Of a DNA stretch of 64,000 bases, positions 8,508 through 38,879 are shown piece after piece. The position numbers and the translations under genes were made by a program. Source of the DNA: an uncultured Planctomycetales bacterium (GTDB lineage: Bacteria; Omnitrophota; Gorgyraeia; Zapsychrales; JANLHA01); NCBI GenBank assembly GCA_964474085.1, contig CAYYRJ010000001.1, forward strand, positions 27,631 to 91,630, given 5' to 3'. The notes beneath the pieces were generated by a model. The model was given only the letters and a program-made list of their open reading frames with translations, did no database searches and was not told the origin of the DNA. Position 1 is the stretch's first letter. Each line of letters starts with the position of its first letter.

Positions 8508-9520
8508 AGCGGTTAAAGACTTTTATTATTGCCGAAGCCGGAGTCAATCATAATGGAAAACTTGCCTTAGCCAAACAGTTGATTAAGGCAGCCAAAAGCG
8601 CTGGTGCAGATGCGGTTAAGTTTCAAACTTTTAACGCAGAGCGTCTGGTGACGGCAACAGCCAGCAAAGCGACTTATCAGAAAAAACTGACTTTGCCCAG
8701 TGAAACACAGCTGGCGATGCTAAAAAAATTGGAACTTAGTCGGAGTGATCATAAACAGTTGCTTGCCTGCTGTCGGGAAAATAAAATTTTATTTTTATCA
8801 ACAGCGTTTGATGAGCAAAGCGCGGATTTATTAGATGCGCTGGGCATGAAGATTTTTAAAATTCCCTCGGGTGAAATAACAAATCTCGAATTTCTTAAAT
8901 ATATTGCTCAAAAGGGCAAGCCGATGATTTTGTCAACGGGGATGTCGACGTTAAAGGAAGTTGAGCTTGCGGTCAAAAGTATTTTTTCAGCAGGCAATAA
9001 GCGCCTGACCCTTTTGCATTGTGTCAGTGATTATCCGGCAGCCTTCGATCAGCTTAATTTAAAAGCAATCGAAACTTTGCAAAAAACTTTTCGTTTGCCG
9101 GTCGGGTTTTCGGACCATAGTCTGGGGATTTTAATGGCTCCTGTCGCAGTTGCGTTGGGGGCGGTGGTTATTGAAAAGCATTTGACGGTGGATCAGACTT
9201 TGCCCGGGCCGGATCATCAGGCTTCAGTAAAGCTGCAAGAATTTAAGATGATGGTCGAAAATATACGCCTGGTTGAAAGCGCATTAGGAAACGGGAACAA
9301 AGTACCGGCCTTGTGTGAAGATGATTGCCGAAAGATAGCCCGTAGAAGTTTGACCGCTGTTTGCGACATAGCCAAGGGAGAAAAATTGTTGAGTTCTGAT
9401 ATTGTTCTCAAGCGTCCGGGGACAGGAATTTTTCCAGCGGACTTAAAGAAAGTCGTCGGGCGGCAGGTTTTAAAAAACATCACAAAAGACGAGACATTGA
9501 CATGGGCCAAAATAAAATAA
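8504..9520 (+). CDS. neuB: nonulosonic acid synthase (NeuB/LegI/PseI family)
   Basis: FIIAEAGVNHNG...AKSAGADAVKFQTF N-terminus typical of NeuB-family aldolases. C-terminal SAF/antifreeze-like domain. Start at ATG 8504 overlapping the upstream stop (ATGA). The ORF track start, 8354, is upstream of the conserved N-terminus. Confidence 0.9.
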   Translation: MKRLKTFIIAEAGVNHNGKLALAKQLIKAAKSAGADAVKFQTFNAERLVTATASKATYQKKLTLPSETQLAMLKKLELSRSDHKQLLACCRENKILFLSTAFDEQSADLLDALGMKIFKIPSGEITNLEFLKYIAQKGKPMILSTGMSTLKEVELAVKSIFSAGNKRLTLLHCVSDYPAAFDQLNLKAIETLQKTFRLPVGFSDHSLGILMAPVAVALGAVVIEKHLTVDQTLPGPDHQASVKLQEFKMMVENIRLVESALGNGNKVPALCEDDCRKIARRSLTAVCDIAKGEKLLSSDIVLKRPGTGIFPADLKKVVGRQVLKNITKDETLTWAKIK

Positions 9521-23860: not shown

Positions 23861-25486
23861 ATGCCGCAAAACAGTAAAATTGAAAAGAAGTTTCTTCTTT
23901 TGATGGGTGCCATTATTGTCTTGTTTCTGTTGGTCTGGTTTTTTTCTGCTCGAAGTTTTACCGGCTGGGGGGATGAAATTACCCATTTTTCGACGGCCAA
24001 GGGACTTGTCGAGACCGGGGAATATAGAACATGGGCTTTTGATAAAGGATATGCCAACCCCTATCTTTATACACGAGGGCTTGTGATTACGTATCTTGCG
24101 AGTATAGTTTATAAAATTTCAGGCTTGTCTCTTTTGGCCTTTCGCGTGATCCCTCTTGTTTTTGTAATGTTGACATTTTTAACTTTTGCACTTTATATCC
24201 GTTTTCGACATCGGGCTACAGCTAAAGCTCTAGTGTATGCGGCGATTTTCTTTTTTGGGCAGGCATTTATTTTTGAACAGTCAGTCTATGTCAGAGTCTA
24301 TGCGCCGCTAGGTTGGTTTATGGTTATGACTTTGATCCTTTTTTGGGAATCTGCCGTCGCTTTTGGAAAACGAAATCTTGTGTCAGGGGTTTGGTTTTTG
24401 GTGGGAAGTCTGTTTCTGCTTATTTTGCCGGCAGCAGATCATTGGCAGGTCTCCCATATCGCAATTTATTTTTTGGGATTTCTTTTAACATGGCCTGTAT
24501 TTTTGAATATCTTTCTAAAGTTCGACGATAGATTTAGCATAAGGGTAAAGATTTTTTGGATAGGCAGCATTATTTTACTTGCGCCGTTTCTTGTTTTTTT
24601 CTTGGATTTGAGTATGGCGCATTTGATTATGAATACAAAAAAGCTTGTTTTGGGGCGTAATTATGTGACGTATTGGGACAATTTGGTAGGGTTAGTCCGT
24701 TATGTTTTGGCCTTGAATGTTTGTTTTTTAGGTCTTCATTGGGCGATGCAAATACTGAGAAAAAATAAAAGATTGGACTTTTATTCTTGGCTTTTTTATA
24801 CGGGTATTATCTCAGGAATCTTAATAGGACTTTTTAACCCGCATAATCATATATTTTATTCGCGATTCTTTTATGTTTCGGTTGTGTTGGCTGGGTTAGG
24901 GTTTTCCCAAATGTTGCTTCGTCTTCAATTATCTAAAATAGCAATGCGATGGGTTCTCGGTATTTTTATTCTTTTGAATACAAGCTTGTTTGGGGTAAAT
25001 GTTTATTATGAACGCAGTAATATTCGTATTGCCATATCGTGGCTTGAAAAAAATTTAAAGCAAGACGATGCCCTTTTGGTTTTTGCCAGTCAGTTGGAGC
25101 TCCACGGCGGAAAGTCTTTACTGCCTCGGACCTACTCAGTGGCCCCCAGTCAAGATCCGATGGAGATTGTAAAATTGCTGGAACGATTAGAAACAAGTTT
25201 GGCTAATGAAATTTATTTTTTATATACTGACGAATACCAATTTCGCGATTATCTTTATTTGTTAACCGTCGGGGAGGACCGCAGCGCGCCTAATGATCTG
25301 TTCCGCCAGCTTCAAGAAGTAGTTTTTTCGAAACCCGTAATTTCAGGATTACGGTCGTGTAATCTTGTGAGGTACAAAAAAGCTGATCTCGTTGCAGCGT
25401 TGCAAAAATTATTGCAGGAAGGGTATCCATCGCAATTTAAAGCACCGGAGAAAAGAATTTTGAAAAAGATTTTCAAGCTTCGATGA
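23861..25486 (+). CDS. GT-C fold membrane glycosyltransferase (ArnT/PMT family-like)
   Basis: 541 aa, about 12 predicted TM helices, first extracytoplasmic loop with acidic DE motif (GWGDEITH). Strong RBS AAGGAGAAATAGG. Confidence 0.55.
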   Translation: MPQNSKIEKKFLLLMGAIIVLFLLVWFFSARSFTGWGDEITHFSTAKGLVETGEYRTWAFDKGYANPYLYTRGLVITYLASIVYKISGLSLLAFRVIPLVFVMLTFLTFALYIRFRHRATAKALVYAAIFFFGQAFIFEQSVYVRVYAPLGWFMVMTLILFWESAVAFGKRNLVSGVWFLVGSLFLLILPAADHWQVSHIAIYFLGFLLTWPVFLNIFLKFDDRFSIRVKIFWIGSIILLAPFLVFFLDLSMAHLIMNTKKLVLGRNYVTYWDNLVGLVRYVLALNVCFLGLHWAMQILRKNKRLDFYSWLFYTGIISGILIGLFNPHNHIFYSRFFYVSVVLAGLGFSQMLLRLQLSKIAMRWVLGIFILLNTSLFGVNVYYERSNIRIAISWLEKNLKQDDALLVFASQLELHGGKSLLPRTYSVAPSQDPMEIVKLLERLETSLANEIYFLYTDEYQFRDYLYLLTVGEDRSAPNDLFRQLQEVVFSKPVISGLRSCNLVRYKKADLVAALQKLLQEGYPSQFKAPEKRILKKIFKLR

Positions 25487-25535
25487 AAGAAGAATCTTAG
25501 CCAACCGCTGGTATACTGACTAACTGAAGATTTTT

Positions 25536-27644
25536 ATGCGGGCATTATTATCTGTATTAGAAGAGTCTGTCTTGTTCATTGAATGGCTTGATACAGGAAG
25601 CTTGTTTTTTGAAGTCATCCCGTATTTTTTGAGGCATGGAAGAAAGATATCCAAAACGATTTTTGTTTTTGATGCTTCTTTAAGTGCGTTGCGTCTAACT
25701 CGATGTGTAAGCTTTTTAATGAAATGGAAAATTGAGCTTGTTCGTTTTGAGCTCTCTGAAATCAGGGACCAGAATAATTTTTCACTGCGGCTGCGTTTGG
25801 ATTATTTTGATATAGGAGCGATCACAGATAAAATTACTGCTAATGCCGCTTTTCAAAATTATATTTGTCACTTTAAAGATCCACAACACTTAAGTCATTA
25901 TCTGGCTAAAGATTTTATCGAATTTGATTTAACGTCTTTGCAACGCCATCGCCAGATTTTGCATGCGATTACACTTGTAAATGTCAGCCGCTGGTATTTG
26001 AAAAATGGAAACTGCGGCATAAAGTTGTTTTTAAAAAAACGCTGTTGGCCTGAAATTTTGCAAGAATATGCGCGTGATTTGAATGTTGTTCTGGTTTTTG
26101 CATTGCCTTTTTACAATTTTGCTTTTGATACAAAAAGAGCTGTACGTCAGTTTTTAGCACGTTATGTTCATTGGGGTATTTTTTTCTTGCGAAACATAAA
26201 GTTTGTTTTTCGGAAAATCCATGTTCGTAATGCGGTTTGCCAAAGAGGCGATGTATCAAAAATATTGAAATATAAATTGGGTGTTGAGTATTATGGCCAT
26301 TTGAATTTAGAAAGAAAGGATGCGTTTTCAGATTTATTTTTTTATTCCCAATCTCAATTAAAGGGAGAGGAGATTACGCTTCTTTTTAGTTTACCGCAGG
26401 ATCCGCTTGATCAAAACAAATCGGTGGAATTACAAAAGCATGATATTTCAGCGTTGGTCCGTTTTCCCAGCGCTAGCCATTTGCCATTGTCTCAAGCTTC
26501 CGTGCATGACCCGTGGTCTGTCCCAGATGCGTGGCATTTGAGTGATCCTTTGCCTAATGTTCAAAGAAATGATAAGTATTTTGCTATTTTACGGAAGAAA
26601 ACAGTTACTTACAATCGTCAGCTAGGGTATTGGAAAGATCTTTTTATAAAAAACAATATCCGTCTGTATACCCACTGGTATAAATATGATGCTAAGCATA
26701 TTCCTCTCGCAGATGCTTTGAAAAGTTTAGGCGGAATATCAGCTCTATATCAGAGGGCTTATGAGTCTCATCCGATCCGGGGATTGTCCATTGTTTCGGA
26801 TGTAGTCTTTTGTTATAGTAAAAATAATTTTGCTATTGAAAAAGACAACCGGTCCGATATTGGTTATCAGGTTGTCACGGGGTTTTTGGGAGATTTTCGT
26901 TTTCCCCATTTAAAAGAGAAAGCTTTGGAGATTGCTAGGCCTTTGCGTGAAAAAGGGGTAAAACGAATTATCGCTTTTTTGGATGAAAACACGCTCGACG
27001 ACGGACGCTGGTTTGTTGGGCATGCTTTCACGCAAAGAAATTATGCTTATTTGATTGATAAAGTTCTTAAAGATCCACGGTACGGGATTATTTTTAAACC
27101 CAAAGTTTCATGGAATCTGCGTCGTCGGCTGGGAGATGTCGCAAAGCAGCTTGATGAATTGCAAAAATGTGGGCGAGGTGTTATTTTGGGAGGCGGTTGT
27201 CTGCAGAATATGCACCCGCCGGCGCTGGCGGCTCTGGCAGCTGACCTAACGATTCACGAATGTTTAAGCGCTGGCTCAGCCGGTGTTGAGGCCGCCCTTG
27301 CGGGGGCGCCAACGTTATTTTTGGACACCGAAGGCTGGCCGGTTAGTCCCTTTTATCAAGGGGGTTTAGGAAAAGTTGTATTTCAGGATTGGCCGTCTTT
27401 ATGGCAGGCCTGCGAAGATTTTTTTGAAAAGCCTGCGGCAAAAGCGTCGATCGGAAATTGTGCGCCTTTTTTAAGTGAAATAGACCCGTTTCGTGACGGA
27501 CGTGCCGCCGAGCGTATGGGGACTTATTTGAAATGGCTGCTTAACGGTTTAAACGCCGGTTTGCCGCGTCAAGAGGTGTTGGCAGATGCCGCAGAAAAGT
27601 ACACAAAACTTTGGGGTAAAGATAAGATCCATTTAAAAAACTAA
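25536..27644 (+). CDS. hypothetical protein (702 aa), possibly a GT-B-like / capsule-biosynthesis-like C-terminal domain
   Basis: Long ORF. C-terminal GGG...HP...SAG.EAAL.G.P segment loosely resembles nucleotide-sugar binding regions. Nothing diagnostic. Confidence 0.4.
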   Translation: MRALLSVLEESVLFIEWLDTGSLFFEVIPYFLRHGRKISKTIFVFDASLSALRLTRCVSFLMKWKIELVRFELSEIRDQNNFSLRLRLDYFDIGAITDKITANAAFQNYICHFKDPQHLSHYLAKDFIEFDLTSLQRHRQILHAITLVNVSRWYLKNGNCGIKLFLKKRCWPEILQEYARDLNVVLVFALPFYNFAFDTKRAVRQFLARYVHWGIFFLRNIKFVFRKIHVRNAVCQRGDVSKILKYKLGVEYYGHLNLERKDAFSDLFFYSQSQLKGEEITLLFSLPQDPLDQNKSVELQKHDISALVRFPSASHLPLSQASVHDPWSVPDAWHLSDPLPNVQRNDKYFAILRKKTVTYNRQLGYWKDLFIKNNIRLYTHWYKYDAKHIPLADALKSLGGISALYQRAYESHPIRGLSIVSDVVFCYSKNNFAIEKDNRSDIGYQVVTGFLGDFRFPHLKEKALEIARPLREKGVKRIIAFLDENTLDDGRWFVGHAFTQRNYAYLIDKVLKDPRYGIIFKPKVSWNLRRRLGDVAKQLDELQKCGRGVILGGGCLQNMHPPALAALAADLTIHECLSAGSAGVEAALAGAPTLFLDTEGWPVSPFYQGGLGKVVFQDWPSLWQACEDFFEKPAAKASIGNCAPFLSEIDPFRDGRAAERMGTYLKWLLNGLNAGLPRQEVLADAAEKYTKLWGKDKIHLKN

Positions 27645-29413: not shown

Positions 29414-30251
29414 AATTCTTGTCACTGGCGCCAATGGTTTTGTCGGTCAGGCGCTTTGTCGACGGTTAATGGCTCTTAAATACGAAGTTTATGGTTTGGA
29501 TCGCAATCAACCCTTCATGGCTGGTTTTGCAGATTTTTATTGTCAAGACATCACAAAACCTTTTGATCTTAAAGAAAACTTTCATTTTGTTTTTCACTGT
29601 GCGGCCCATAATGTTACGCATGTGGGAAGTCAGGATGCGGATCTGTACCATCGGGTCAATGTTGTGGGGACCGAAAATATTTTAAAGGCCGTCAAGACGG
29701 ATCATTTTGTTTTCTTGTCGACGGCAAAGGTCTATCTTGCCCAAGGAAAACCTCTCGATGAAGACTGTCCGGTTTTGCCTTTGCAGAAATACGAAAAAAG
29801 TAAGCTTGCCGCCGAACAGATTTGTTTTCAGCGCTTAGACGAACGCAGTTTAATTATTTTTCGCTGTGTCAATATTGTCGGTTTGGGTCAACCTGATAAA
29901 GCGGTTATTCCGGTTCTTTTCAAAAACGCTTATGTCGGTGAACCGCTTGATATTTTTGCCCCGCGCGGATCAGTTTTGCAATTTTTATTTGTTGAAGACG
30001 CGGTTGATGCGTTTGTGAAGGTGATTGAAAAAGGACATTTGTCGGGTGTTTATAATCTTGCTAGTCAAGAGCATATTCGGTTAGACCAATTGGCAGAAAT
30101 GATTAAGGCCATGTGCCGATCTAACAGTGAAATTCATTTTGCCGATGAAAGCGTCCCGGAGTTTTCGCAAGTGCTTTGTGCTAAGGCCCAAAACGCTTTA
30201 GGCTGGAAAGCCAAGACTTCGGTCAGAGAAATTTTAGAAAGTTATGGATAA
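29400..30251 (+). CDS. NAD(P)-dependent epimerase/reductase (dTDP-4-dehydro-6-deoxyhexose reductase-like)
   Basis: ILVTGANGFVGQAL Rossmann motif, YEKSK catalytic motif. ATG 29400 inside the track ORF 29376. Confidence 0.65.
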   Translation: MKSVKILVTGANGFVGQALCRRLMALKYEVYGLDRNQPFMAGFADFYCQDITKPFDLKENFHFVFHCAAHNVTHVGSQDADLYHRVNVVGTENILKAVKTDHFVFLSTAKVYLAQGKPLDEDCPVLPLQKYEKSKLAAEQICFQRLDERSLIIFRCVNIVGLGQPDKAVIPVLFKNAYVGEPLDIFAPRGSVLQFLFVEDAVDAFVKVIEKGHLSGVYNLASQEHIRLDQLAEMIKAMCRSNSEIHFADESVPEFSQVLCAKAQNALGWKAKTSVREILESYG

Positions 30252-30315
30252 CTGCCAAGGTGTTTTATCTGAGAATTATCGGTTATTAGGGTTTTTTGTA
30301 GCTTTAAAAGTAAAT

Positions 30316-30344
30316 TTGCATATCCCAGCCTTAAATGGTAAATA
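30316..30344 (+). promoter_or_regulatory. candidate sigma70-type promoter (TTGCAT-N17-TAAATA) for the J-like/Hsp70/kinase module
   Basis: Hexamers with 17-bp spacing in the 140-bp AT-rich gap upstream of the ATG at 30392. Confidence 0.3.
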
Positions 30345-30391
30345 TATAGATATACTTTAATGGGTTTATAGCCGTAGGGGAGACGTAAGAG

Positions 30392-32575
30392 ATGAATCTA
30401 TATCAAAATAATGCGTTTAGAGTTTTAGGGCTTTTGACCAATGCGACGACGGCCGAAATTGTCGCGCGTGCCAACGAAATCAAGGTCAAAAAGTCGGTAA
30501 ATTTTGACGGCGGCTACCAGTATGACTTTCCGTGGTTAGGCGTTCTTGATCGCAGTGAGGAAAATATTGCCAGCGCCCTTCAGCGGCTCGAAGACCCTGT
30601 CCGGCGGATTAAGCAGGAACTTTCCTGGTTTTGGCTGCAGTCAGACGCTGACCGTCAGGCCCTTAAAGCATTGTCAGAGCAGCAGTTAAAAAACGCTTTT
30701 GCCATTTGGCTTAAAGAGAGCGGTTTGACTGAAAGCAATCTCTGCGAAAAAGAAATTTCGCCGGCAACGACCCCGGAGGCTTTAGTTGCTTTGCATAATC
30801 TTTTTGTCCTTTTTCAATCGACTCTTTTACGCAATGAAATTAATGCCGGCCAAGGTGAGGCTTTTGTCCTTTTGGGGAATGATACGAATTCCCAGGAGAA
30901 TTGGGCTATTGCTTTAAGAGTTTTTAATTTTTTGCATACCAATGAAAAGTTTTGGGAATTGGTCAAGAAGCGCATCGACGCTATGCAGGACCGGCGCGTA
31001 CAAAATATTTCGATGGAAGAGATTAAAGAAAGCGCGCTTAATAATGCTCTTTCAGGTCATTTTTTTCTCATGACTAAAGCGTTGGGCAACAAAGATTTAC
31101 CGATGTTAGATAAGCATATCGAAATCCTTGAAAACGCCAATATGCCGGTTGACCTTTATAAGTCAGGTTTAAATTTGGTTCTCAACACGCGCATTGAGAG
31201 CATCAATGCGCTTTGTGATGAATTTGTCCGCGAAAGAAAAGTCGCTGAAGACAAAGGCGACGGGTCGCTTTATAAAAGCCTTTTCTACAAATATCGGGAT
31301 AGCGCTAAACCGTTGATTGACGACTGTAATATCGTTGACCGCAAGGGGATGACGGATTTTGGCGTTTCGCGCGAAAAATTTGCCAAGTCGTTTCAGCAAT
31401 TGTCTTGGAAGCTTAATAAAAGCGGGGATGCTCTGGGTGCATTGGAAAGCATGAATGAAGCGTACAAGAATTTATACTCGGACGCTTTAAAAATGGAATG
31501 CGAAAAAGACGCAGAACGCATCATTAAAGATGCTATTGAGCAATACAGTGACGATGCCACCAAGTTGATTGCCCCGGCAAACGGCAAAGCCCCGCTTGAT
31601 CAGGTTTTAAATATCAAAGAGCAATATCTTAATCAGGTCAAATCGGTGTTTTCTACCGGCGAAGTTTTTATGACCGATAAACTCGAAGGGTTGCTTCGCG
31701 AGCTTGTCGCCAAGGAGCTTCAGCTGATTTCTGTCGAGGTGCATGACAAATATCAAGCGTACGAGCATGCAGACGAAATTATTAAAGAAGCGATGGATTG
31801 GGCAGACCAGGCTAACAATGACGCGTTTAAAAAAGAGCTGGAAGCCGTCAAAAGAGATTGGTTGGAAGGGATTGAAACACGAACCACAAAGCCTCGTATT
31901 ATTATCGAGGAGTCACGACAAAAACCGGTATTTGCATGGGCTGTGGGGATGGCCCTTATTGTCGCGGCGATCTTTTCGGTCGTTGTTGCGATACAGGTAT
32001 CATCCAAAACGCCGCTTCCACCGTCGACAGTGACCGCTAAAACATCAGCCTCGCAAGAGGAGCCGATGAAGTCTTCATCGCAAAAGATTGTTTTACCCTC
32101 AAGTCCGTCGACGAGTGCGCCATCAATGGCGATAAAGGCCGCTGCTGCTGTTATTGCCGTCGCCCCGGCTGTTTTGCCGTCGCAGGCACAAGCTCAAAGC
32201 GCTCGTGAAAATCCTTTGCCTGTCGTTGTTGAAATGCCTCTGTCTGTGCAAGACGAAACTCTGATTGCCGAGGCTGCAGAGGTCAAATCCCAAATTTCCG
32301 CCCACAAGGATAAGATCAAAAGCATGGAGACTGAGCTTGAGATGCTTAGGCGGGAAAATGAGGTCCGTCAGGCCTCGATTGACCGGCTCGACAATAAGAT
32401 CGGTACCAACCCTGACAGCGTTGAATATAATTTTTGGGTCAATGAGCATAATGAGCTAGTCCGTGAACAAAATCAGGCTATCGAAGTCTCAAAAGAAAAG
32501 TATCGACAATACCAAGAAGAGTTCAAACGTCAGCAAGAGATGATCATGTCCTATAACGAACGTTTTGCACGATAA
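30392..32575 (+). CDS. membrane-anchored J-like domain protein with a long coiled-coil region and one TM helix
   Basis: N-terminus NAFRVLGLL...AEIVARANEI...ALQRLEDPVRRIKQEL aligns to J-domain helices II and IV, but there is no HPD tripeptide. TM helix VFAWAVGMALIVAAIFSVVVAIQV near residue 515. Pro/Ser/Ala-rich linker and a C-terminal heptad coiled coil. Good RBS. Confidence 0.6.
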   Translation: MNLYQNNAFRVLGLLTNATTAEIVARANEIKVKKSVNFDGGYQYDFPWLGVLDRSEENIASALQRLEDPVRRIKQELSWFWLQSDADRQALKALSEQQLKNAFAIWLKESGLTESNLCEKEISPATTPEALVALHNLFVLFQSTLLRNEINAGQGEAFVLLGNDTNSQENWAIALRVFNFLHTNEKFWELVKKRIDAMQDRRVQNISMEEIKESALNNALSGHFFLMTKALGNKDLPMLDKHIEILENANMPVDLYKSGLNLVLNTRIESINALCDEFVRERKVAEDKGDGSLYKSLFYKYRDSAKPLIDDCNIVDRKGMTDFGVSREKFAKSFQQLSWKLNKSGDALGALESMNEAYKNLYSDALKMECEKDAERIIKDAIEQYSDDATKLIAPANGKAPLDQVLNIKEQYLNQVKSVFSTGEVFMTDKLEGLLRELVAKELQLISVEVHDKYQAYEHADEIIKEAMDWADQANNDAFKKELEAVKRDWLEGIETRTTKPRIIIEESRQKPVFAWAVGMALIVAAIFSVVVAIQVSSKTPLPPSTVTAKTSASQEEPMKSSSQKIVLPSSPSTSAPSMAIKAAAAVIAVAPAVLPSQAQAQSARENPLPVVVEMPLSVQDETLIAEAAEVKSQISAHKDKIKSMETELEMLRRENEVRQASIDRLDNKIGTNPDSVEYNFWVNEHNELVREQNQAIEVSKEKYRQYQEEFKRQQEMIMSYNERFAR

Positions 32576-32606
32576 CATCGATTCGGATAATTCAAGTAGC
32601 TAATCT

Positions 32607-32987
32607 ATGGGTGAAAACGATTCTGAGTATCAGGATTTTGTTGTCGAGATCGCCATTGAATTTTGGCGTTTAGAAAAACGCTTTGGCAAGGCAGGCTCTT
32701 TTTTATCTGCAGAAGAACGACAGCTGTTTGCGGACCAAATGCAAAGAATGCGCCGTGTTCTTGAAAAATACGAGATAGAAATTCGCGATCCCAAAGGCGA
32801 AATCTATATGGATGGCCGCAGCCTAAAAGCGATTTATATCGAAGAAGTTTCCGATTTCCCCGCCGGTGAGTGCCGCATTATTGAAACTGTTAAACCTTGT
32901 GTTTGCTATAAAGGCTGTGTTATTTTTTCAGGTGAAGTTATTGTAGGTCAAGGCAAGACTCCTAAGCCTAACAAGGTCAGCCCATGA
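32607..32987 (+). CDS. small protein, possibly a GrpE-like nucleotide-exchange-factor remnant (helical N-terminus plus beta C-terminus)
   Basis: 126 aa. C-terminal ...CYKGCVIFSGEVIVGQ resembles the GrpE C-terminal beta segment (KGY..RV.RPA.V.V). Its stop overlaps the Hsp70 start (ATGA). Confidence 0.35.
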   Translation: MGENDSEYQDFVVEIAIEFWRLEKRFGKAGSFLSAEERQLFADQMQRMRRVLEKYEIEIRDPKGEIYMDGRSLKAIYIEEVSDFPAGECRIIETVKPCVCYKGCVIFSGEVIVGQGKTPKPNKVSP

Positions 32988-35488
32988 GCCGGCGAACCGT
33001 CGATTTTGGCATTGATTTAGGAACGACAAATTCGGCGATTGCTCTTATGGAGCATGGGCAGGCGAAGGTCTTAAAAAACTTTAAACAAAGTGAAATTACC
33101 CCCTCTGTTGTCCGTATTGATGAAAACGGCAGTGTGATCGTCGGGCAAAGTGCGTATAACCGTCTTTACACGGATCGTGAAAATACATTCTCTGCATTCA
33201 AGTTGCTGATGGGCACGCGCCAGACGAAGAATTTTGTCCGTTCTGGACGTATTTTAAAACCTGAAGAATTGTCCGCTGAAGTCCTCAAAGACCTTAAAGC
33301 GACGGTGCGTTTGCGTCTGCCCGATGAACCGGATATGACGGCGGCGGTGATTACGGTTCCTTGTTATTTTGAAATGACCCAATCCCAGGCGACGAGTGTG
33401 GCGGCAAAACTTGCCGGTATTGAGTTTGCGCCGCTTTTGCAGGAACCGATTGCAGCGTCGATAGCGTACGGCTTTATGGAAAAAATGCCCAAAGGCTATT
33501 GGATTGTTTATGACTTAGGTGGCGGGACTTTTGATGTGGCGCTTTTGTCGGCGAAGGATGGGCATTTGGTTGTCGTTGATCATGATGGTGACAATTATCT
33601 AGGCGGCGGCGATTTTGATTGGCGTATCGTCGAGGAAATTATTTATCCGGTCTTGCGTGAAACGTATCACTTGCCGGGTTTAGGCCGTAATTTAGAGTAT
33701 GGGTTACTTAACGCTGTTCTTAAATACGCTGCCGAAGAGGCAAAAATCAATCTTTCACAAAGTGAAAAGACCGAAATTATTGTCGAGGAAATGGAAAGCC
33801 TCAAAGACCATGACGGCAAAAGGGTGGCTCTTCGCATTGCGTTTAATCGTCAGCAGTTAAATGCAGTTATTGGAGAAGATGTTGAAAAAAGCATACGGTT
33901 GTTTCGTAACCTTTTAAAAAATCAAAAACTTGCCGCCGCAGACGTTGGGCATTTGATTCTTGTTGGAGGGCCGACACAAATTCCTTATATTCGCGAGCGT
34001 TTAAAGGATGAATTTCAGATCCCGATTAATTATTCGGTCGACCCGATGACGGTCGTCGCCAAAGGGGCGGCGATTTACGCTTCCTGCCAACTTCTTGCCC
34101 CGGGCAAGATTCCCACAGATAACAAAGCTCTCAGTGTTCAATTAAACTATGAGCCGATGACAACAGCGCTGCAGGTTAGTGTCGCCGGAAAAATTGTGAG
34201 CGCCAAAGATGCGTCATTGCCTTCGGGGATGAAACTGCAGATTAGAAGTGCTGCCGGCGACTGGCAAAGCGGGATGATAGAAATCCGTGACGGTGTTTTT
34301 TTTGCGTCGTTGTTATTGCAGCCGAATGGTGTTAATACATTTATCCTCGCTTTGTTTGATCAGAGCGCAAATCAGGTGCCTGTCGATGGGGATTCTTTTT
34401 CTATTACACAGGGCATGTCGGTGGGTGCTCCGCCTTTGGCGCGTTCGATTGGTGTTGAATTGCACGACGGGACTTTTGACAGATTGTTGGCCAAAGGCGT
34501 TTCTTTGCCGGTCAAAGCTTCTTATACATATCATGCGGCCAAGGACATTCATCCCGGGCAGGAACAAGAGGCTATTGAAATTCCTGTGCGCGAGGGAGAA
34601 AGTGACCGCTTTGATTTGAATCGGCATTTGGGGACTTTGGTTATTCGCGGGACAGATATAGGGCGCAAAATTCCTGTTAACGCCGACGTGGAAGTCACGA
34701 TCTTTGTCGATCAGTCGCGCAGCGTTTCGGCCGAGGCGTTTATCCCTGTGTTGGACCAGAAATTTTCAATGAAAATCCCGAATATGACCTCGCCCTTGCC
34801 TGAGAGCAAGGATTTTCCGTTGATCCTTGAGCGTCAAGAAAAGCGTTGGAAAGAAATTCAACAGAAGGCCGGGAGTTTAAAAATTTCATTGGCGCAAGCG
34901 GCTGTTTTGGTCAATGGCTATTTTACAGAAATCAATCGTGAAATTAAAGCCGTCAGCGGCTTAGACCCGATTGTCATTGAAAAAGTCGACCGGCGCCTTA
35001 AAGAATTGCAAGAGCATCTTGATGCTGCCGGCAAAATTGTGTTTTGGCCGGCGTTATTGCAGGAATATAAACAGCGTTTTGCCGATGCGATGGATACCGT
35101 CGAGAATTTTGCTGGAAATGTCCAGTACCTGGAGCGTTTGAATTTGTTGAAAAAAGATGCAGATAAAGCAGTTGCTTTAAGTGACAGCAAGCGTTTGAAT
35201 AAGGCCTTGGAAGACATCAATGATTTAAAGTGGGAAATTTTATTTCGACAAAAAGATTTTTGGATTGGAGCTTTTCAGGAGTTGCGGCAAAAAGAGCCCG
35301 AAAAATTTATAAATCCCAAGCGTGCCCATGATTTGCTTGAGGAGGGAGGGCGCGCGCTTTTGCGTCAGGATACCGAGTCGGTGCAAAGCATCACCATTGA
35401 ATTATGGAAACTGATTTCCTCAGATGAGCAAGCGCATATTACGCAGGCGGTCAATACGCGCTCTGGCATCAAAAGAAAAAAATCTTAA
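32984..35488 (+). CDS. atypical Hsp70 family chaperone (DnaK/HscC-like) with an inserted segment and an extended C-terminal helical region
   Basis: NBD motifs GIDLGTTNS, VITVPCYF, DLGGGTFD and ILVGGPTQIP. An SBD-beta-like block (IGVEL.DG.F..L...G..LP......Y...D.....AIEIPV.EGE....LGTLVI.G...G...V.ADVEVTIFVDQSRSVSAEAF). An extra segment of about 100 aa between the NBD and the SBD. About 230 aa of helical C-terminus. Confidence 0.85.
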   Translation: MSRRTVDFGIDLGTTNSAIALMEHGQAKVLKNFKQSEITPSVVRIDENGSVIVGQSAYNRLYTDRENTFSAFKLLMGTRQTKNFVRSGRILKPEELSAEVLKDLKATVRLRLPDEPDMTAAVITVPCYFEMTQSQATSVAAKLAGIEFAPLLQEPIAASIAYGFMEKMPKGYWIVYDLGGGTFDVALLSAKDGHLVVVDHDGDNYLGGGDFDWRIVEEIIYPVLRETYHLPGLGRNLEYGLLNAVLKYAAEEAKINLSQSEKTEIIVEEMESLKDHDGKRVALRIAFNRQQLNAVIGEDVEKSIRLFRNLLKNQKLAAADVGHLILVGGPTQIPYIRERLKDEFQIPINYSVDPMTVVAKGAAIYASCQLLAPGKIPTDNKALSVQLNYEPMTTALQVSVAGKIVSAKDASLPSGMKLQIRSAAGDWQSGMIEIRDGVFFASLLLQPNGVNTFILALFDQSANQVPVDGDSFSITQGMSVGAPPLARSIGVELHDGTFDRLLAKGVSLPVKASYTYHAAKDIHPGQEQEAIEIPVREGESDRFDLNRHLGTLVIRGTDIGRKIPVNADVEVTIFVDQSRSVSAEAFIPVLDQKFSMKIPNMTSPLPESKDFPLILERQEKRWKEIQQKAGSLKISLAQAAVLVNGYFTEINREIKAVSGLDPIVIEKVDRRLKELQEHLDAAGKIVFWPALLQEYKQRFADAMDTVENFAGNVQYLERLNLLKKDADKAVALSDSKRLNKALEDINDLKWEILFRQKDFWIGAFQELRQKEPEKFINPKRAHDLLEEGGRALLRQDTESVQSITIELWKLISSDEQAHITQAVNTRSGIKRKKS

Positions 35489-35498
35489 GGTCTCATAC

Positions 35499-36386
35499 AT
35501 GTCCCGCAATTTTGAAGTTTTGCCGCAATATACCGTGATCCGCGATACCTATACCGTCGAGAACGTTTTGGGTGAAGGGGCTTTTGGTGTTGTCTATAAA
35601 GTCCGCCATAAGTTTCTTGGCATTCAGGCGCTTAAAGTTTTTCATCCCGAAAAATTGTCTGAAAAAATAGCTAGCGATTTTCTCAATGAAGCGGTCATCC
35701 TTTCTAAGATCACGCATCCGAATGTTGTGCGCGTTTTTGAAGCGAACCATTTTGATCTTCAGGGAAAAGGTGTCGCCTACGTGGCGATGGAATATGTCGC
35801 CGGCGGAACGCTTGATGCGTATATCCGTAAAAATGTCCGGCTTGAAATTAATTTGGCACTGCAAATTCAGATGATGATTTGCCGCGGTTTGGCGCACGTT
35901 CATGCTTTTAGCCCGCCTATCATTCATCGGGATGTCAAGCCACAAAATATCATGCTTGATTTGTCGTCGAAGAATTTTGTCGTTAAAGTCTCTGATTTTG
36001 GGCAGGCCCAACACGCGGACCCTTTGACAAAATTGGCCCAGTCGGCCGGGACGCTTGCCTATATGGCCCCGGAGGGTTTTTGGAATTATAAATCGCCCGC
36101 CAGTGATGTGTATTCGGCGGGAATGATTTTATACATTATGTTGACCGGAGTTGCCCCGTTTAAGATTCCGCAGAATCTTGGGGACAAGGACAGGCAAGAA
36201 GTCGAGCGGGCCATACGCAAAGCCCGCAGCACTGATCCTGAGTCTCCGTCGGTGTTCAATCCAAGGATCGATCCGAAGTTAAGTGCGATTGTCCTTAAGT
36301 CGCTCTCTTACGACGCTGCCAAGCGCTATCAGGATGCGGCAGAGTTTTTGTCGGCTTTGGAAAATTATGTTTCGCCGGATAAGTAA
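35499..36386 (+). CDS. Hanks-type serine/threonine protein kinase (cytoplasmic, kinase domain only)
   Basis: GEGAFGVVYK glycine loop, AL-K lysine, HRDVKPQNIML catalytic loop, DFG (SDFGQA), APE motif. ATG 35499. Confidence 0.85.
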   Translation: MSRNFEVLPQYTVIRDTYTVENVLGEGAFGVVYKVRHKFLGIQALKVFHPEKLSEKIASDFLNEAVILSKITHPNVVRVFEANHFDLQGKGVAYVAMEYVAGGTLDAYIRKNVRLEINLALQIQMMICRGLAHVHAFSPPIIHRDVKPQNIMLDLSSKNFVVKVSDFGQAQHADPLTKLAQSAGTLAYMAPEGFWNYKSPASDVYSAGMILYIMLTGVAPFKIPQNLGDKDRQEVERAIRKARSTDPESPSVFNPRIDPKLSAIVLKSLSYDAAKRYQDAAEFLSALENYVSPDK

Positions 36387-36409
36387 TCTATTTAGAAAGG
36401 AATTTTTAC

Positions 36410-36754
36410 GTGAACAAAATCATATGTTTGGTTGTTAAAACCGGCCCTTTAAAAGGCCATAAATATTTTGTGAAAGCGGATTGTCCTGTTCTAATCGGGC
36501 GTGGCGAAGAAGCCAATATCCGAATCGATTATGACAAGTTTTGTTCGCGCAGCCATGCGGTGGTTTACTGGGAAAATGATGCCTGTTGCATCAAGGATTT
36601 AAACAGTACCAACGGGACGCATGTCAACAAAGTGCGGATTTTGGGAAATGTGCGTTTGGAAAATAAAAACATCTTGAGCTTTGGCTCAACAGAGGTTGTG
36701 GTTTTTATTTTAGACCACATGAAGGACGCAAAATCATTGATGGACCTTGATTAG
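36410..36754 (+). CDS. FHA domain-containing protein
   Basis: 114 aa. LIGRGEEANIRI....SRSHAV......C.I.DLNSTNGTHVN matches the FHA core (G-R...S-xx-H...NGT). GTG start with AGAAAGGAA RBS. Confidence 0.8.
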   Translation: MNKIICLVVKTGPLKGHKYFVKADCPVLIGRGEEANIRIDYDKFCSRSHAVVYWENDACCIKDLNSTNGTHVNKVRILGNVRLENKNILSFGSTEVVVFILDHMKDAKSLMDLD

Positions 36755-36776
36755 TATAGATGAAGTCTGCGTTGAT

Positions 36777-37901
36777 ATGACAAAAACAAAGATCCTGATC
36801 TGTGGAACGCTCCCGCCGCCGAATTTTGGGCACAGCATGCTTTATAAAGCGCTGATGGAATCCCGTTTTGCCCAAGAGTTTGATATTGTTTTTTTTAACA
36901 TAAAATTTTGGTCGTATGAACAGCACCATAAGGTTACAGCCGCAAAACTTTTTAAATTCGTCCAATATTATTTTCAATTTATCACGTTAATACTTACGAA
37001 ACGGCCGCAGTATGTTTTGTATGCGATCAGTTTTGACAAGATGCCGTTTTTGAAGGATTTTGTTTTTTGCATGACCGCAGAGATTTTGGGTTGTAAAGTT
37101 GTTTTGCATGATATGGGCCAGTATGTGCGTGAGCTTTATGATTCCTCGTCGATGTTTTTCCGCAGCCTGATGCGTTTTATGCTTAAAAGAATGACAGCAA
37201 GCCTTGTCCTAGGGGAATTGACGCGTAAAGTTTACGAGGGGCTTATGCCGAGCGATCGCGTTTATGCGATCCCTGCGGCGACCGCGGATTCTGCAAATTC
37301 TATTTTTCCAGTTGAAGATCGATGGCCCGGCGAAAAAATCAGGGTGCTCTTTTTTTCGTTTTTGCAAAAGTCCAAAGGCATTTGGGTCGCGCTGGAAGCG
37401 ATGCCAAAGGTCATTGCCCAAAATCCCAATGTTTATTTTACTTTTGCCGGCCCCGCCGAGTCGCAGGAGTTTGTTAGGCAAATGAATGATTTTATTGTCC
37501 GCAATCACCTAGAAAAGCATTTTGAATATGTTGGTTATGTCGGTGATGAAGAAAAACGAAGTGAATATTTTCGCAACTGTGATATCTATATCTTCCCGAC
37601 GCTGCGCGATGTTTTTGGGTTAGTCCTTTTGCATGCGATGGCAGAAGGCCGTCCGGTCATCGCTTCTTATGAGGGTGCAATCCCTGAAATTGTCGACGAT
37701 GGCCAAACAGGTTTTCTTTTCCAAAAATCCGATGCTGCGGCTTTGGCAGAAAAAATATTGCTTCTTGCACGCGACCGCCAAGCTCGTGCTATGATGGGCA
37801 AAAATGGGCGGATCAAATATGAGCGGCTTTATACGCTGGATGCGTATGCACAGCGGATGATTGATTTTTTTTCGTCTTTAGATAAACTTAGTAGATATTA
37901 A
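36777..37901 (+). CDS. family 4 (GT-B) glycosyltransferase
   Basis: C-terminal EX7E region (FPTLRDVFGLVLLHAMAEGRPVIASYEGAIPEIVDDGQTGFLF). ATG 36777. The track start, 36747, is TTG. Confidence 0.75.
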   Translation: MTKTKILICGTLPPPNFGHSMLYKALMESRFAQEFDIVFFNIKFWSYEQHHKVTAAKLFKFVQYYFQFITLILTKRPQYVLYAISFDKMPFLKDFVFCMTAEILGCKVVLHDMGQYVRELYDSSSMFFRSLMRFMLKRMTASLVLGELTRKVYEGLMPSDRVYAIPAATADSANSIFPVEDRWPGEKIRVLFFSFLQKSKGIWVALEAMPKVIAQNPNVYFTFAGPAESQEFVRQMNDFIVRNHLEKHFEYVGYVGDEEKRSEYFRNCDIYIFPTLRDVFGLVLLHAMAEGRPVIASYEGAIPEIVDDGQTGFLFQKSDAAALAEKILLLARDRQARAMMGKNGRIKYERLYTLDAYAQRMIDFFSSLDKLSRY

Positions 37902-38040
37902 CCCGGCTTTTGCATTAGCCTCGCTCCTGCGAGGCCAAGCAAAAGCCGCCCAAAGGGCCGCATGTCTCGACACCGTCGAGACGTGCGGGGTTAATCCTTG
38001 CGGTAAACCGCGACCACAGGGAGTCCCTGTGGGACAACCG
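37902..38040 (+). other. GC-rich multi-hairpin intergenic region (candidate structured RNA or protein-binding region)
   Basis: Nested stems GGCTTTTGC[GCCTCGC-TCCT-GCGAGGC]GCAAAAGCC, CCGCA[GTCTCGAC-ACC-GTCGAGAC]GTGCGG, GCGG-TAAA-CCGC and CCACAGGGA-GT-CCCTGTGG. No U-tract follows. Local GC is far above the surrounding sequence. Confidence 0.3.
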
Positions 38041-38047
38041 AAGGCAA

Positions 38048-38118
38048 ATTTTGCATTTCCTTTTTTGTGCGCGACGGATCGTCGCGCACTGGGTTGTAAT
38101 GCAAAATTTGGGATTAAG
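38048..38118. repeat. ~70-bp extended palindromic element, copy 2
   Basis: About 90% identical to 9527-9596. Ends 8 bp before the GTG start of the WecG/TagA-family gene, and is non-coding here (in-frame TAA inside it). Confidence 0.6.
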
Positions 38119-38126
38119 GAAAGAAA

Positions 38127-38879
38127 GTGGCCGTAAGATTTTTTGACATTTTTGGCGTGCGGATTAGTGCGGTTAATTTAAACGTCGCCTGCAGCCAAAT
38201 TGAAACCTGGATTGAAGAAGGGATAAGGACATATGTCTGCGTCGCGCCGGTTTCGACACTTATCGATTGTCAAAATGACGCAGAGTACCGGCAGATTGTT
38301 AATAGTGCGGGGATGGTCACACCCGACGGAATGCCGCTTGTCTGGGTGGGGCGGCGGCGTTGCGGAAATTTAGTCCAAAGGACTTATGGGCCGGATTTAA
38401 TGACGAGTTTTTGTGCTGTAAGCGAAAGCAAAGGCTACAAACATTTTTTTTATGGCGGGTCCAGCCAAGCTAACCGTCTTTTGATTCAAAATCTAAAATT
38501 ACGTTTTCCAAAACTGATCATTGCCGGTCAATATGCTCCCGCTTACGTAGCGCCCAAACAGCAGGAAAAGCCGGATGTCATTGATCTGATTAATGCGTCG
38601 GGCGCAGATGTGTTGTGGGTCGGATTAGGTTCGCCCAAACAGGATTTTTGGATGGCTAAGCACAGAGCGTTACTCAATGTTTCGGTTATGATTGGTGTTG
38701 GGGCGGCCTTTGATTTTTTGGGTGGGACAAAACGACAAGCGCCTCGATGGATGCAACGCTTAGGATTTGAATGGGTGTTTCGGCTGTGTTGTGAACCGCG
38801 GCGTTTGTGGCGACGATATCTTTATGGCAATGCGCGGTTTATTTATCTTTTTATGACAAAAGAACTTTTTCGCAAATAG
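38127..38879 (+). CDS. WecB/TagA/CpsF family glycosyltransferase (N-acetylmannosaminyltransferase-like)
   Basis: FDIFGVRISAV...TPDGMPLVW...FFYGG signature of the WecG/TagA family. GTG start after AAGGAAAGAAA. Confidence 0.85.
   Translation: MAVRFFDIFGVRISAVNLNVACSQIETWIEEGIRTYVCVAPVSTLIDCQNDAEYRQIVNSAGMVTPDGMPLVWVGRRRCGNLVQRTYGPDLMTSFCAVSESKGYKHFFYGGSSQANRLLIQNLKLRFPKLIIAGQYAPAYVAPKQQEKPDVIDLINASGADVLWVGLGSPKQDFWMAKHRALLNVSVMIGVGAAFDFLGGTKRQAPRWMQRLGFEWVFRLCCEPRRLWRRYLYGNARFIYLFMTKELFRK

Follow-up and report, generated by a model that had tools for sequence, protein, structure and literature searches.

Hsp70 systems are usually viewed as general protein-folding machinery. Specialised, narrow-client Hsp70/J pairs such as HscA/HscB and HscC/DjlC are also known, and HscC is an atypical Escherichia coli Hsp70 encoded beside the membrane-anchored J proteins DjlB and DjlC. 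Older genetics linked DjlA, DnaK and GrpE to activation of the Rcs capsule phosphorelay. In Myxococcus xanthus the Hsp70 paralogue SglK is encoded beside the GrpE homologue GrpS. Extra M. xanthus Hsp70 paralogues (SglK, StkA) are reported to control exopolysaccharide (EPS) (PMC4319316, PMC8265645), StkA being an Hsp70-like negative EPS regulator (PMC4319316). Overexpression of DjlA in E. coli triggers Rcs, with DjlA acting as a DnaK co-chaperone (PMC11709261). Among predicted conflict systems, those of the GAP1-N2 theme have their own Hsp70, GrpE and DnaJ-fused protein (Kaur, Burroughs, Iyer, Aravind, eLife 2020, PMC7159879), and a separate theme within the GAP1-N2 family includes an active protein kinase (PMC7159879). 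The predicted type III CoCoNuT defence system contains the Hsp70-like CnuD, with a nucleotide-binding domain (NBD) and a substrate-binding domain (SBD) (eLife 2024, PMC11090510), and CoCoNuT operons also hold Ser/Thr kinases in the TerY-P triad (PMC11090510). Here we analyze a five-gene cassette at positions 30392-36754 of a 64,000-nucleotide stretch of contig CAYYRJ010000001.1 (the window), which encodes a membrane-anchored J-like protein, a GrpE-like protein, an atypical Hsp70, a Ser/Thr kinase and an FHA protein.

This cassette belongs to a horizontally mobile family, not previously described, that is built round a private Hsp70 machine. Its relatives reside on a transposon, plasmids, prophages and anti-phage defence islands of several phyla. 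This spread speaks for a conflict or signalling system based on chaperones that has yet to be described, and not for a housekeeping set. The reading we favour from these sequence comparisons, with a probability of roughly 0.55, is that the cassette would act as a mobile conflict/defence module in which Hsp70 gates the kinase and FHA protein. A preliminary description of this DNA had named no described system of such composition, and none surfaced here: PADLOC-DB v2 left the J-like, GrpE-like, Hsp70 and FHA proteins unmatched, NCBIfam (June 2026) contained no model specific to the cassette, and full-text literature searches found no description of it.

A conserved five-gene arrangement

All five open reading frames (ORFs) that the preliminary description had grouped into one co-oriented module were found on the + strand: gene 1 (30392-32575, 727 amino acids [aa]), gene 2 (32607-32987, 126 aa), gene 3 (32984-35488, 834 aa), gene 4 (35424-36386 as called, 320 aa) and gene 5 (36410-36754, 114 aa). 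Every fetched locus was searched with local profiles of the five families. Of 14 independent Omnitrophota-type loci that could be evaluated, spanning 40-97% Hsp70 identity, 12 carry the genes for the J-like protein, GrpE-like protein, Hsp70, kinase and FHA protein in this order; one exception is missing the FHA gene and the other the GrpE-like gene. In L015 (metagenome-assembled genome [MAG] HK-STAS-OMNI-1) the GrpE-like gene is cleanly missing at 8802-8866; the other four genes are intact, and the gene 1 stop is joined to the Hsp70 start by 62 nt containing no Ns. Such constancy of content and order puts the arrangement far beyond chance, and the co-occurrence of Hsp70, kinase and FHA homologues in other genomes, on which the earlier proposal had been made to depend, is thereby borne out.

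Two loci showed peculiarities of their own. An extra 241-aa gene without a Pfam match lies between the Hsp70 and kinase genes of L011 (12560-13285). A complete bacterial-type cassette, with a LysM version of gene 1, sits on an archaeal-labelled MAG contig (L009/L010, GCA_013375405.1, 'Candidatus Helarchaeota'), reflecting either a mis-binned bacterial contig or horizontal transfer.

More than 100 full-length Hsp70 homologues of ~835 aa were recovered; nearly all are metagenomic, and the few labelled by organism are mostly Omnitrophota. The family is nonetheless patchy: a census of 185,579 species genomes, scanned with patterns from a narrower Hsp70 alignment, yielded 9 loci with the patterns used. 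A tblastn search of plasmids with the family-specific half of Hsp70 matched three records. Plasmid pHALHY02 of Haliscomenobacter hydrossis carries five genes in a row adjoining brxL (BREX), pglZ and McrBC-like genes. The first encodes a 571-aa protein with the J-like domain at its N-terminus (E 3e-19), the second a 299-aa protein with a C-terminal GrpE-like domain (E 8e-11) and the third an Hsp70 of 841 aa (E 5e-106, 33% identical across 740 residues). The fourth product, of 604 aa, is a fusion of a Ser/Thr kinase with an IetA-type AAA ATPase, and the fifth is a TerB protein. On plasmids of Shewanella xiamenensis and Aeromonas caviae, the GrpE-like and Hsp70 module is cargo of a Tn7-like transposon. 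There the GrpE-like gene and an 830-aa Hsp70 (29% identity over 825 residues, E 1e-84) accompany an IetA-type AAA ATPase, followed by a peptidoglycan-binding protein (PG_binding_1), several membrane or secreted proteins and an RDD protein. In A. caviae pKAM471_1 the long Hsp70 gene is split into ORFs of 546 aa and 200 aa (L026, 7846-10343), which makes it a probable pseudogene; Shewanella has a nearly identical copy that is intact. When PADLOC was applied to the plasmid versions, only the IetA-like AAA domain and the kinase were matched.

The gammaproteobacterial type of module was also present in 1 of 5,426 E. coli genomes, within an integrative island where its neighbours include RADAR rdrB, a dptF remnant and insertion sequence elements. 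The module of E. coli HeN100 lies at about 4115.5-4122.3 kb of NZ_CP044443.1. A 580-aa neighbour protein in the E. coli island has a weak J-like motif (E ~0.003-0.016). The J-like partner is thus clear in the Omnitrophota and Bacteroidota versions and weak in the gammaproteobacterial ones, and the shared core across phyla is the GrpE-like protein plus the long Hsp70, with a variable module downstream. The family is accessory and mobile: in E. coli, in Shewanella and Aeromonas and in Haliscomenobacter it is carried in addition to the chaperone set of the host, and it is a rare supplement in organisms with a normal DnaK system, as the single E. coli genome shows.

Predicted products of the cassette

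The 834-aa product of gene 3 was previously described as a DnaK-family ATPase. It matches Pfam HSP70 (4e-84) and has an NBD at aa 8-366 (33005-34081; DnaK NBD match, E ~1e-57). All six ATPase residues (DnaK D8, K70, E171, D194, T199, D201) are kept in the window protein and in seven relatives. An SBD comprising SBD-beta and part of the lid (aa ~488-685, 34445-35038) was detected with the family profile, whose C-terminal half matches Hsc70/DnaK SBDs at DnaK 398-600 (E 7e-10 to 1e-9); the window Hsp70 as a single sequence gives a weak match. Between the two domains lies a family-specific, predicted beta-rich insert of ~115 aa (34097-34444). It has no PDB match for profile positions 1-116 and is conserved in the Bacteroidota and gammaproteobacterial relatives. 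The insert includes a family-wide LxLFD-type motif, LALFD in the window (34316-34330, aa ~445-449), which MAFFT placed on the DnaK linker VLLLD (389-393), conserved Asp included, in an alignment that may be spurious; the motif could be a displaced linker or a coincidence. A C-terminal extension of ~150 aa (35039-35485), for which neither a PDB match nor a relative was detectable, is kept across the Omnitrophota-type family; the Shewanella relative aligns nearly to its end and the Haliscomenobacter alignment stops at query residue 712.

Gene 1 encodes, in order, an N-terminal J-like domain, a helical region, a transmembrane (TM) helix, a Ser/Pro/Ala-rich linker and a C-terminal coiled coil, supporting its earlier designation as a TM-anchored J-like protein. 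The N-terminus (aa 1-85, 30392-30646) has the four-helix J-domain fold and aligns to DnaJ helices I-III, with S-V-N in place of the His-Pro-Asp (HPD) motif. HPD was absent from 15 of 15 aligned family members and from further homologues aligned to DnaJ; the position is occupied by S-V-N, S-L-G, D-L-G, K-L-G or E-A-E. Because HPD is absent throughout the family, we term the domain J-like, comparable to the J-like domain of Tim16/Pam16. None of 15 J-like domains scanned at E up to 10 matched Pfam DnaJ, the whole protein had no Pfam match, including DnaJ_C and zinc-finger domains, and the whole gene 1 profile gave nothing significant against the PDB. Against a large protein collection, the J-like profile matched only 14 short fragments.

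The TM helix is strong (aa 516-534, 31937-31993; Kyte-Doolittle score 2.63), and a single such helix occurs at the equivalent place in L005, L007 and L010. A second segment (aa 577-595), rich in Ala, Val and Pro and weakly hydrophobic, is probably not a TM helix. The coiled coil (32234-32572) is conserved in the window, L005, L007, L010 and L011. Since homologues have a single TM helix and the L010 protein has a LysM domain between that helix and the coiled coil, we infer a cytoplasmic J-like domain and an extracytoplasmic coiled coil, and the module may pass signals from envelope to cytoplasm. Gene 1 is by far the most variable component. Its positional homologues range from 518 to 891 aa, differ in their middle and C-terminal parts, and include variants with LysM, a zinc-ribbon or a different TM number.

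Loss of HPD has a counterpart in Hsp70. DnaK R167, N170 and T173 contact the J-domain HPD loop, according to DnaK-DnaJ genetics and the structure of DnaK with a J domain. The equivalent positions are P, Q and I in the window Hsp70 as mapped against E. coli DnaK; across eight aligned family members the first is P, E or A, the second Q and the third I or V. The canonical J-Hsp70 contact is therefore altered on both sides, and the J-like/Hsp70 pair is probably private and insulated from the housekeeping DnaK/DnaJ system.

The 126-aa product of gene 2 was earlier called GrpE-like. It is a minimal protein combining a helical hairpin with a beta-domain, and this architecture corresponds to the GrpE fold of helical bundle plus C-terminal beta-domain, so that it is a predicted nucleotide-exchange factor. 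Its sequence falls below GrpE thresholds, with no Pfam match and an NCBIfam E value of 0.03. Within the family, 11 of 35 and 12 of 37 members gave sub-threshold GrpE matches (best 2e-5). At E <= 1e-10 the family numbers 1,482 representatives of clusters at 50% identity, and the wider cluster members looked up are annotated only as 'hypothetical protein'.

Could these genes simply be the housekeeping DnaK/DnaJ/GrpE set in an unusual arrangement? The three canonical triad folds are present, and the 64-kb window, a small part of the genome, contains no further dnaK or dnaJ. Opposing this, the Hsp70 scores 283 bits against a DnaK equivalog cut-off of 648 (NF001413) and 275 bits against 822 (TIGR02350), and is below the HscA equivalog cut-off as well; the J-like protein has neither HPD nor zinc-finger and C-terminal client-binding domains; and the GrpE-like protein is minimal and was lost in one related species. 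The patchy census and the mobile-element-borne extra copies in cultivated hosts argue the same way. An accessory, mobile family argues strongly against the housekeeping explanation, to which we give next to no credence.

The kinase encoded by gene 4 is a soluble Hanks-type enzyme (Pfam Pkinase 2e-48) whose translation contains GEGAFG, ALK, HRDVKPQN, DFG and APE. Over full kinase domains it matches the PADLOC models PD-T4-6 (E 3e-62) and mad6 (E 3e-61). PknB-type NCBIfam models score it equally high, and the likeness is therefore at the level of a generic Hanks domain. The window kinase does not have a ~65-aa C-terminal helical tail common to most relatives (region 36332-36409). This tail ends in WRKG[IV][IVL]M and is present in L001 (13378-13572), L003, L005, L010 and L011; it is missing from the window, L013, L022 and L007, and appears, from its distribution, to have been lost independently at least three times. 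We speculate that its hydrophobic, basic-flanked end could be a built-in Hsp70 client peptide. The FHA-only protein of gene 5 matches Pfam FHA (1.5e-18), NCBIfam FhaB/FipA (1e-17) and, below cut-off, TagH (1e-7). It contains the phospho-threonine-binding motifs IGRG, SRSH and NSTNGT (GR...SRSH...NG). With catalytic motifs in one protein and binding residues in the other, the kinase and FHA protein form a predicted phospho-threonine writer and reader pair, as had been proposed. Collectively, fold, domain and motif evidence supports each element of the suggested union of a J/nucleotide-exchange factor/Hsp70 triad with such a pair.

The claim that the genes overlap or sit very close survived in part. 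Genes 1 and 2 are 31 nt apart, genes 2 and 3 overlap by 4 nt, and close spacing continues thereafter. Alignment of kinase homologues places the most likely start at the internal ATG at 35499 (MSRNFEVLPQY), giving a kinase gene of 35499-36386 on the + strand. This start lies 10 nt past the Hsp70 stop, and the kinase and Hsp70 genes would thus not overlap. The candidate promoter assigned to the cassette gained no support: in a sequence scan of 29800-38300, promoter- and terminator-like sites were no more frequent than in shuffled sequence. A promoter of its own is unproven, and the sole pointer is a 140-bp AT-rich intergenic gap 5' of gene 1 (30252-30391, + strand), a possible promoter region. 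No Rfam match was found in the window. At the 3' side, the FHA stop falls within a co-oriented GT1 glycosyltransferase gene (36747-37901). The boundary there cannot be drawn from spacing alone; comparative genomics sets it.

Nearly every ORF of at least 150 aa between window positions 71 and 56203 is on the + strand, with positive GC skew in all 2-kb bins. This region is one very long co-directional gene array, which presumably occupies the leading strand.

Genomic surroundings and proposed function

At 40-52% identity, relatives of the cassette have surroundings wholly unlike the glycan cluster in which the window copy lies. Single loci displayed, respectively, a ParB-methylase with a possible terminase (weak Pfam match); phage tail genes directly 5' of the cassette; a neighbouring transposase; an nSTAND fragment, SNase and relaxase; a resolvase with HNH and an SMC-like ATPase; an integrase, cpYpsA, SNase and a helicase-DUF559 protein; Schlafen/AlbA_2, PLD, a SIR2 fragment and an integrase; and PLD, an SNF2 helicase and DUF1156. 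PADLOC identified among the neighbours a full-length HmaA (1,987 bits), a Septu-like PtuA/LmuB ATPase with a PtuB-like HNH protein, a DpdF-like helicase and DrmC-like PLD nucleases. The preliminary description had left open a regulatory or a conflict/defence role. The surroundings of these distant relatives favour conflict/defence, and a fixed position in the glycan cluster, described below, keeps the regulatory option.

Five independent non-glycan loci have a small HTH_17 (excisionase/MerR-like) gene 0-2 kb 5' of gene 1 (L003 7334-7540; L011 6631-6822; L028 5746-5940; L029 7438-7641; L030 1135-1329), with no equivalent in the window. Its role could be to regulate the cassette or to mark the edge of a mobile element.

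Genes for RDD membrane proteins lie 3' of the cassette at Omnitrophota loci (L003 13946-14830; L005 12990-13640; L022 13789-14469; L024 18178-18807), and their products are homologous to the RDD protein of the Shewanella Tn7 cargo (E 1e-27 to 1e-34). On this homology, RDD is a recurrent accessory component across phyla; it is absent from the window and several other loci. The RDD genes bear on a further explanation, in which the cassette would serve the assembly or quality control of one or a few membrane or surface proteins, for instance those of the carrier element, as their dedicated chaperone, and the kinase and FHA protein would be local regulators only, with no sensor-switch. Intact ATPase residues and a true SBD make real client binding by Hsp70 likely, and in gammaproteobacterial versions the core is followed by several secreted or membrane proteins. 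Across Omnitrophota contexts, however, no candidate client gene is conserved, RDD itself being inconstant. The linkage to a kinase is strict, extending to the Bacteroidota kinase-AAA fusion, and so argues for signalling rather than folding. We consider a client-dedicated chaperone improbable.

The window's own clade presents a different setting. In five related species (61-97% protein identity) the cassette lies between rmlB/rmlA/epimerase genes and GT1/WecG/Bac_transf genes, with neither an integrase or other mobile-element gene beside it nor a compositional or GC anomaly. Whether the neighbourhood varies among close relatives in the manner of an island had been posed as a check; the position of the cassette is fixed across these five species. 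A metagenome scan with the downstream GT1 gene, seeking glycan clusters without the cassette, returned distant glycosyltransferases only. Two large ORFs (541 and 702 aa) just 5' of the sugar-nucleotide genes, at window positions 23861-27644, also belong to this cluster. The 702-aa ORF is conserved in L001 and L015 and the 541-aa ORF in L015, and the L001 counterparts have no Pfam domain. The closest relatives of the window, L013 and L014 (96% and 80% Hsp70 identity), were deposited as 'uncultured Planctomycetales bacterium', and those next in similarity bear Omnitrophota labels. Automatic taxon assignment in these third-party annotation assemblies looks unreliable.

Such a setting raises the alternative of an envelope or surface-glycan regulator, in which the J-like protein would sense the state of the envelope or of polysaccharide assembly and act on the kinase by way of its private Hsp70 and GrpE-like partners, and the kinase/FHA pair would tune the adjacent polysaccharide genes. 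Besides its constant place free of mobile-element genes, the cassette is co-oriented with the cluster, and the glycosyltransferase gene that follows begins before the FHA gene has ended. Peptidoglycan-binding domains occur on the sensor of some homologues (LysM, and PG_binding_1 in the Tn7 cargo), and DjlA/Rcs (PMC11709261) and the reported StkA control of EPS (PMC4319316) are precedents. Yet the glycan context is confined to one clade. All 12 of the other distinct contexts examined are unrelated to glycan synthesis, at least 10 of them being mobile-element or defence-like; travel as Tn7 cargo or in prophages is unexpected for a dedicated regulator of one cluster; and the cassette encodes no DNA-binding output. 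By analogy with those precedents a glycan regulator is the main rival reading, and we judge it rather unlikely.

Under the favoured conflict/defence reading, the J-like protein would tether Hsp70 at the inner membrane face and couple it to a cue, and the GrpE-like factor would reset and recycle Hsp70. The Hsp70 cycle would hold or release the adjacent kinase, and the FHA protein would read the resulting phospho-threonine marks and execute the response. The cassette may thereby serve as a sensor-switch on mobile elements, triggered by infection or envelope perturbation. Its output would be kinase-driven, as in stand-alone defence kinases, with an AAA ATPase as the executing arm in other lineages. 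In this Omnitrophota clade the cassette is fixed among surface-polysaccharide genes, possibly sharing a transcript with the glycosyltransferase genes 3' of it, and its output may include surface glycan. The defence and regulator readings are compatible, as a mobile switch could have been domesticated here.

Several observations weigh against a defence role. Stable synteny, the lack of mobile genes and the lack of an anomaly in the window clade fit a domesticated regulatory role equally well, and one non-glycan locus (L005) has no evident defence neighbours. Scans of IMG/VR viral contigs and a phage collection, made with few conserved peptide patterns and limited by identity, found no family member. 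In the window cassette, PADLOC-DB v2 recognised the kinase only, through generic kinase models. Nothing in the cassette is an obvious toxic effector, be it a nuclease or a pore, unless that part falls to the kinase or membrane proteins. As the window kinase has no tail, the proposed Hsp70-kinase coupling may differ here.

More tentatively, at somewhat less than even odds, the cassette could be the founding example of a new mobile immune or conflict class in which a private, orthogonal Hsp70 machine serves as sensor or gate for an interchangeable effector module. The effector role would fall to a Hanks kinase with an FHA protein in Omnitrophota, to a fusion of kinase and AAA domains in Bacteroidota and, in gammaproteobacteria, to an AAA ATPase of the IetA type, and the class would span several phyla and at least ~1,500 clusters (50% identity) of the GrpE-like partner.

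If the proposed switch is real, bacteria have repurposed the chaperone cycle for signalling or immunity, and the remodelled J-Hsp70 interface would be a natural example of an orthogonal chaperone pair. A defence system of this kind would be a mechanistically new sensor class; a glycan regulator would generalise DjlA-Rcs logic beyond enterobacteria. The hypothesis can be tested directly, since E. coli HeN100, Haliscomenobacter DSM 1100 and plasmids of Shewanella and Aeromonas offer relatives in hosts that can be cultured, even though the source of the window, an Omnitrophota-like bacterium, is uncultured.

Comparison with known systems

Three candidate identities were rejected along with the housekeeping DnaK set, from which the cassette is separated by an Hsp70 far under DnaK equivalog cut-offs, an HPD-less J-like protein and an accessory, mobile family. 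Among published proposals, the GAP1-N2 and type III CoCoNuT systems come nearest to the cassette. Membership of the GAP1-N2 or DO-GTPase Hsp70 systems was rejected because no TRAFAC-clade or other GTPase, their core component, is annotated in or beside the cassette at the Omnitrophota-type loci with annotation examined. GAP1-N2 systems have as their defining parts a GAP1-N2 GTPase together with proteins of FNIII repeats, and are found chiefly in actinobacteria and firmicutes (PMC7159879). The J-like, GrpE-like and long-Hsp70 architectures of the cassette are, moreover, not described for GAP1-N2 systems (PMC7159879). CoCoNuT systems combine a McrBC-type GTPase/nuclease with HEPN RNases, and CnuD has degenerate Walker motifs and predicted RNA binding (PMC11090510). 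In contrast, the cassette Hsp70 has intact ATPase residues and is accompanied by J-like and GrpE-like partners, and type III CoCoNuT membership was rejected on those intact motifs and on the lack of McrB, McrC DUF2357 or HEPN within the cassette at the loci examined. The threonine-phosphorylation pathway of the type VI secretion system (PpkA/Fha1/PppA) was discarded as well, with neither that secretion system nor a PP2C family protein among the annotated neighbours.

Other systems resemble single parts of the cassette. Its kinase matches profiles of PD-T4-6, which like the Stk2 type is a stand-alone defence Ser/Thr kinase, and of the MADS kinase MAD6, and a kinase-as-effector logic would fit; those kinases, however, are single-gene systems or parts of unrelated systems. 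HscC with DjlC/DjlB differs in that the DjlB and DjlC J domains bear HPD, in that HscC is chromosomal and not mobile, and in that HscC has no dedicated nucleotide-exchange factor, kinase, FHA protein, insert or long tail. The Myxococcus SglK and StkA operons share an extra Hsp70; they are not reported to include a J-like membrane partner, kinase or FHA protein.

A parallel in logic is the DjlA-DnaK-GrpE/Rcs pathway. DjlA has a C-terminal, HPD-bearing J domain and an N-terminal TerB-type domain, borrows the housekeeping DnaK and GrpE, and delivers its output through a His-Asp phosphorelay. The cassette, by contrast, has an N-terminal, HPD-less J-like domain, a private atypical Hsp70 and nucleotide-exchange factor, and a Hanks kinase plus FHA output, all within one cassette. 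Both nevertheless join a membrane-anchored J protein, an Hsp70 and a GrpE to a kinase pathway, which in E. coli is switched to control surface polysaccharide, and by this analogy DjlA-DnaK-GrpE/Rcs would be the best functional analogue for the copy in the glycan cluster.

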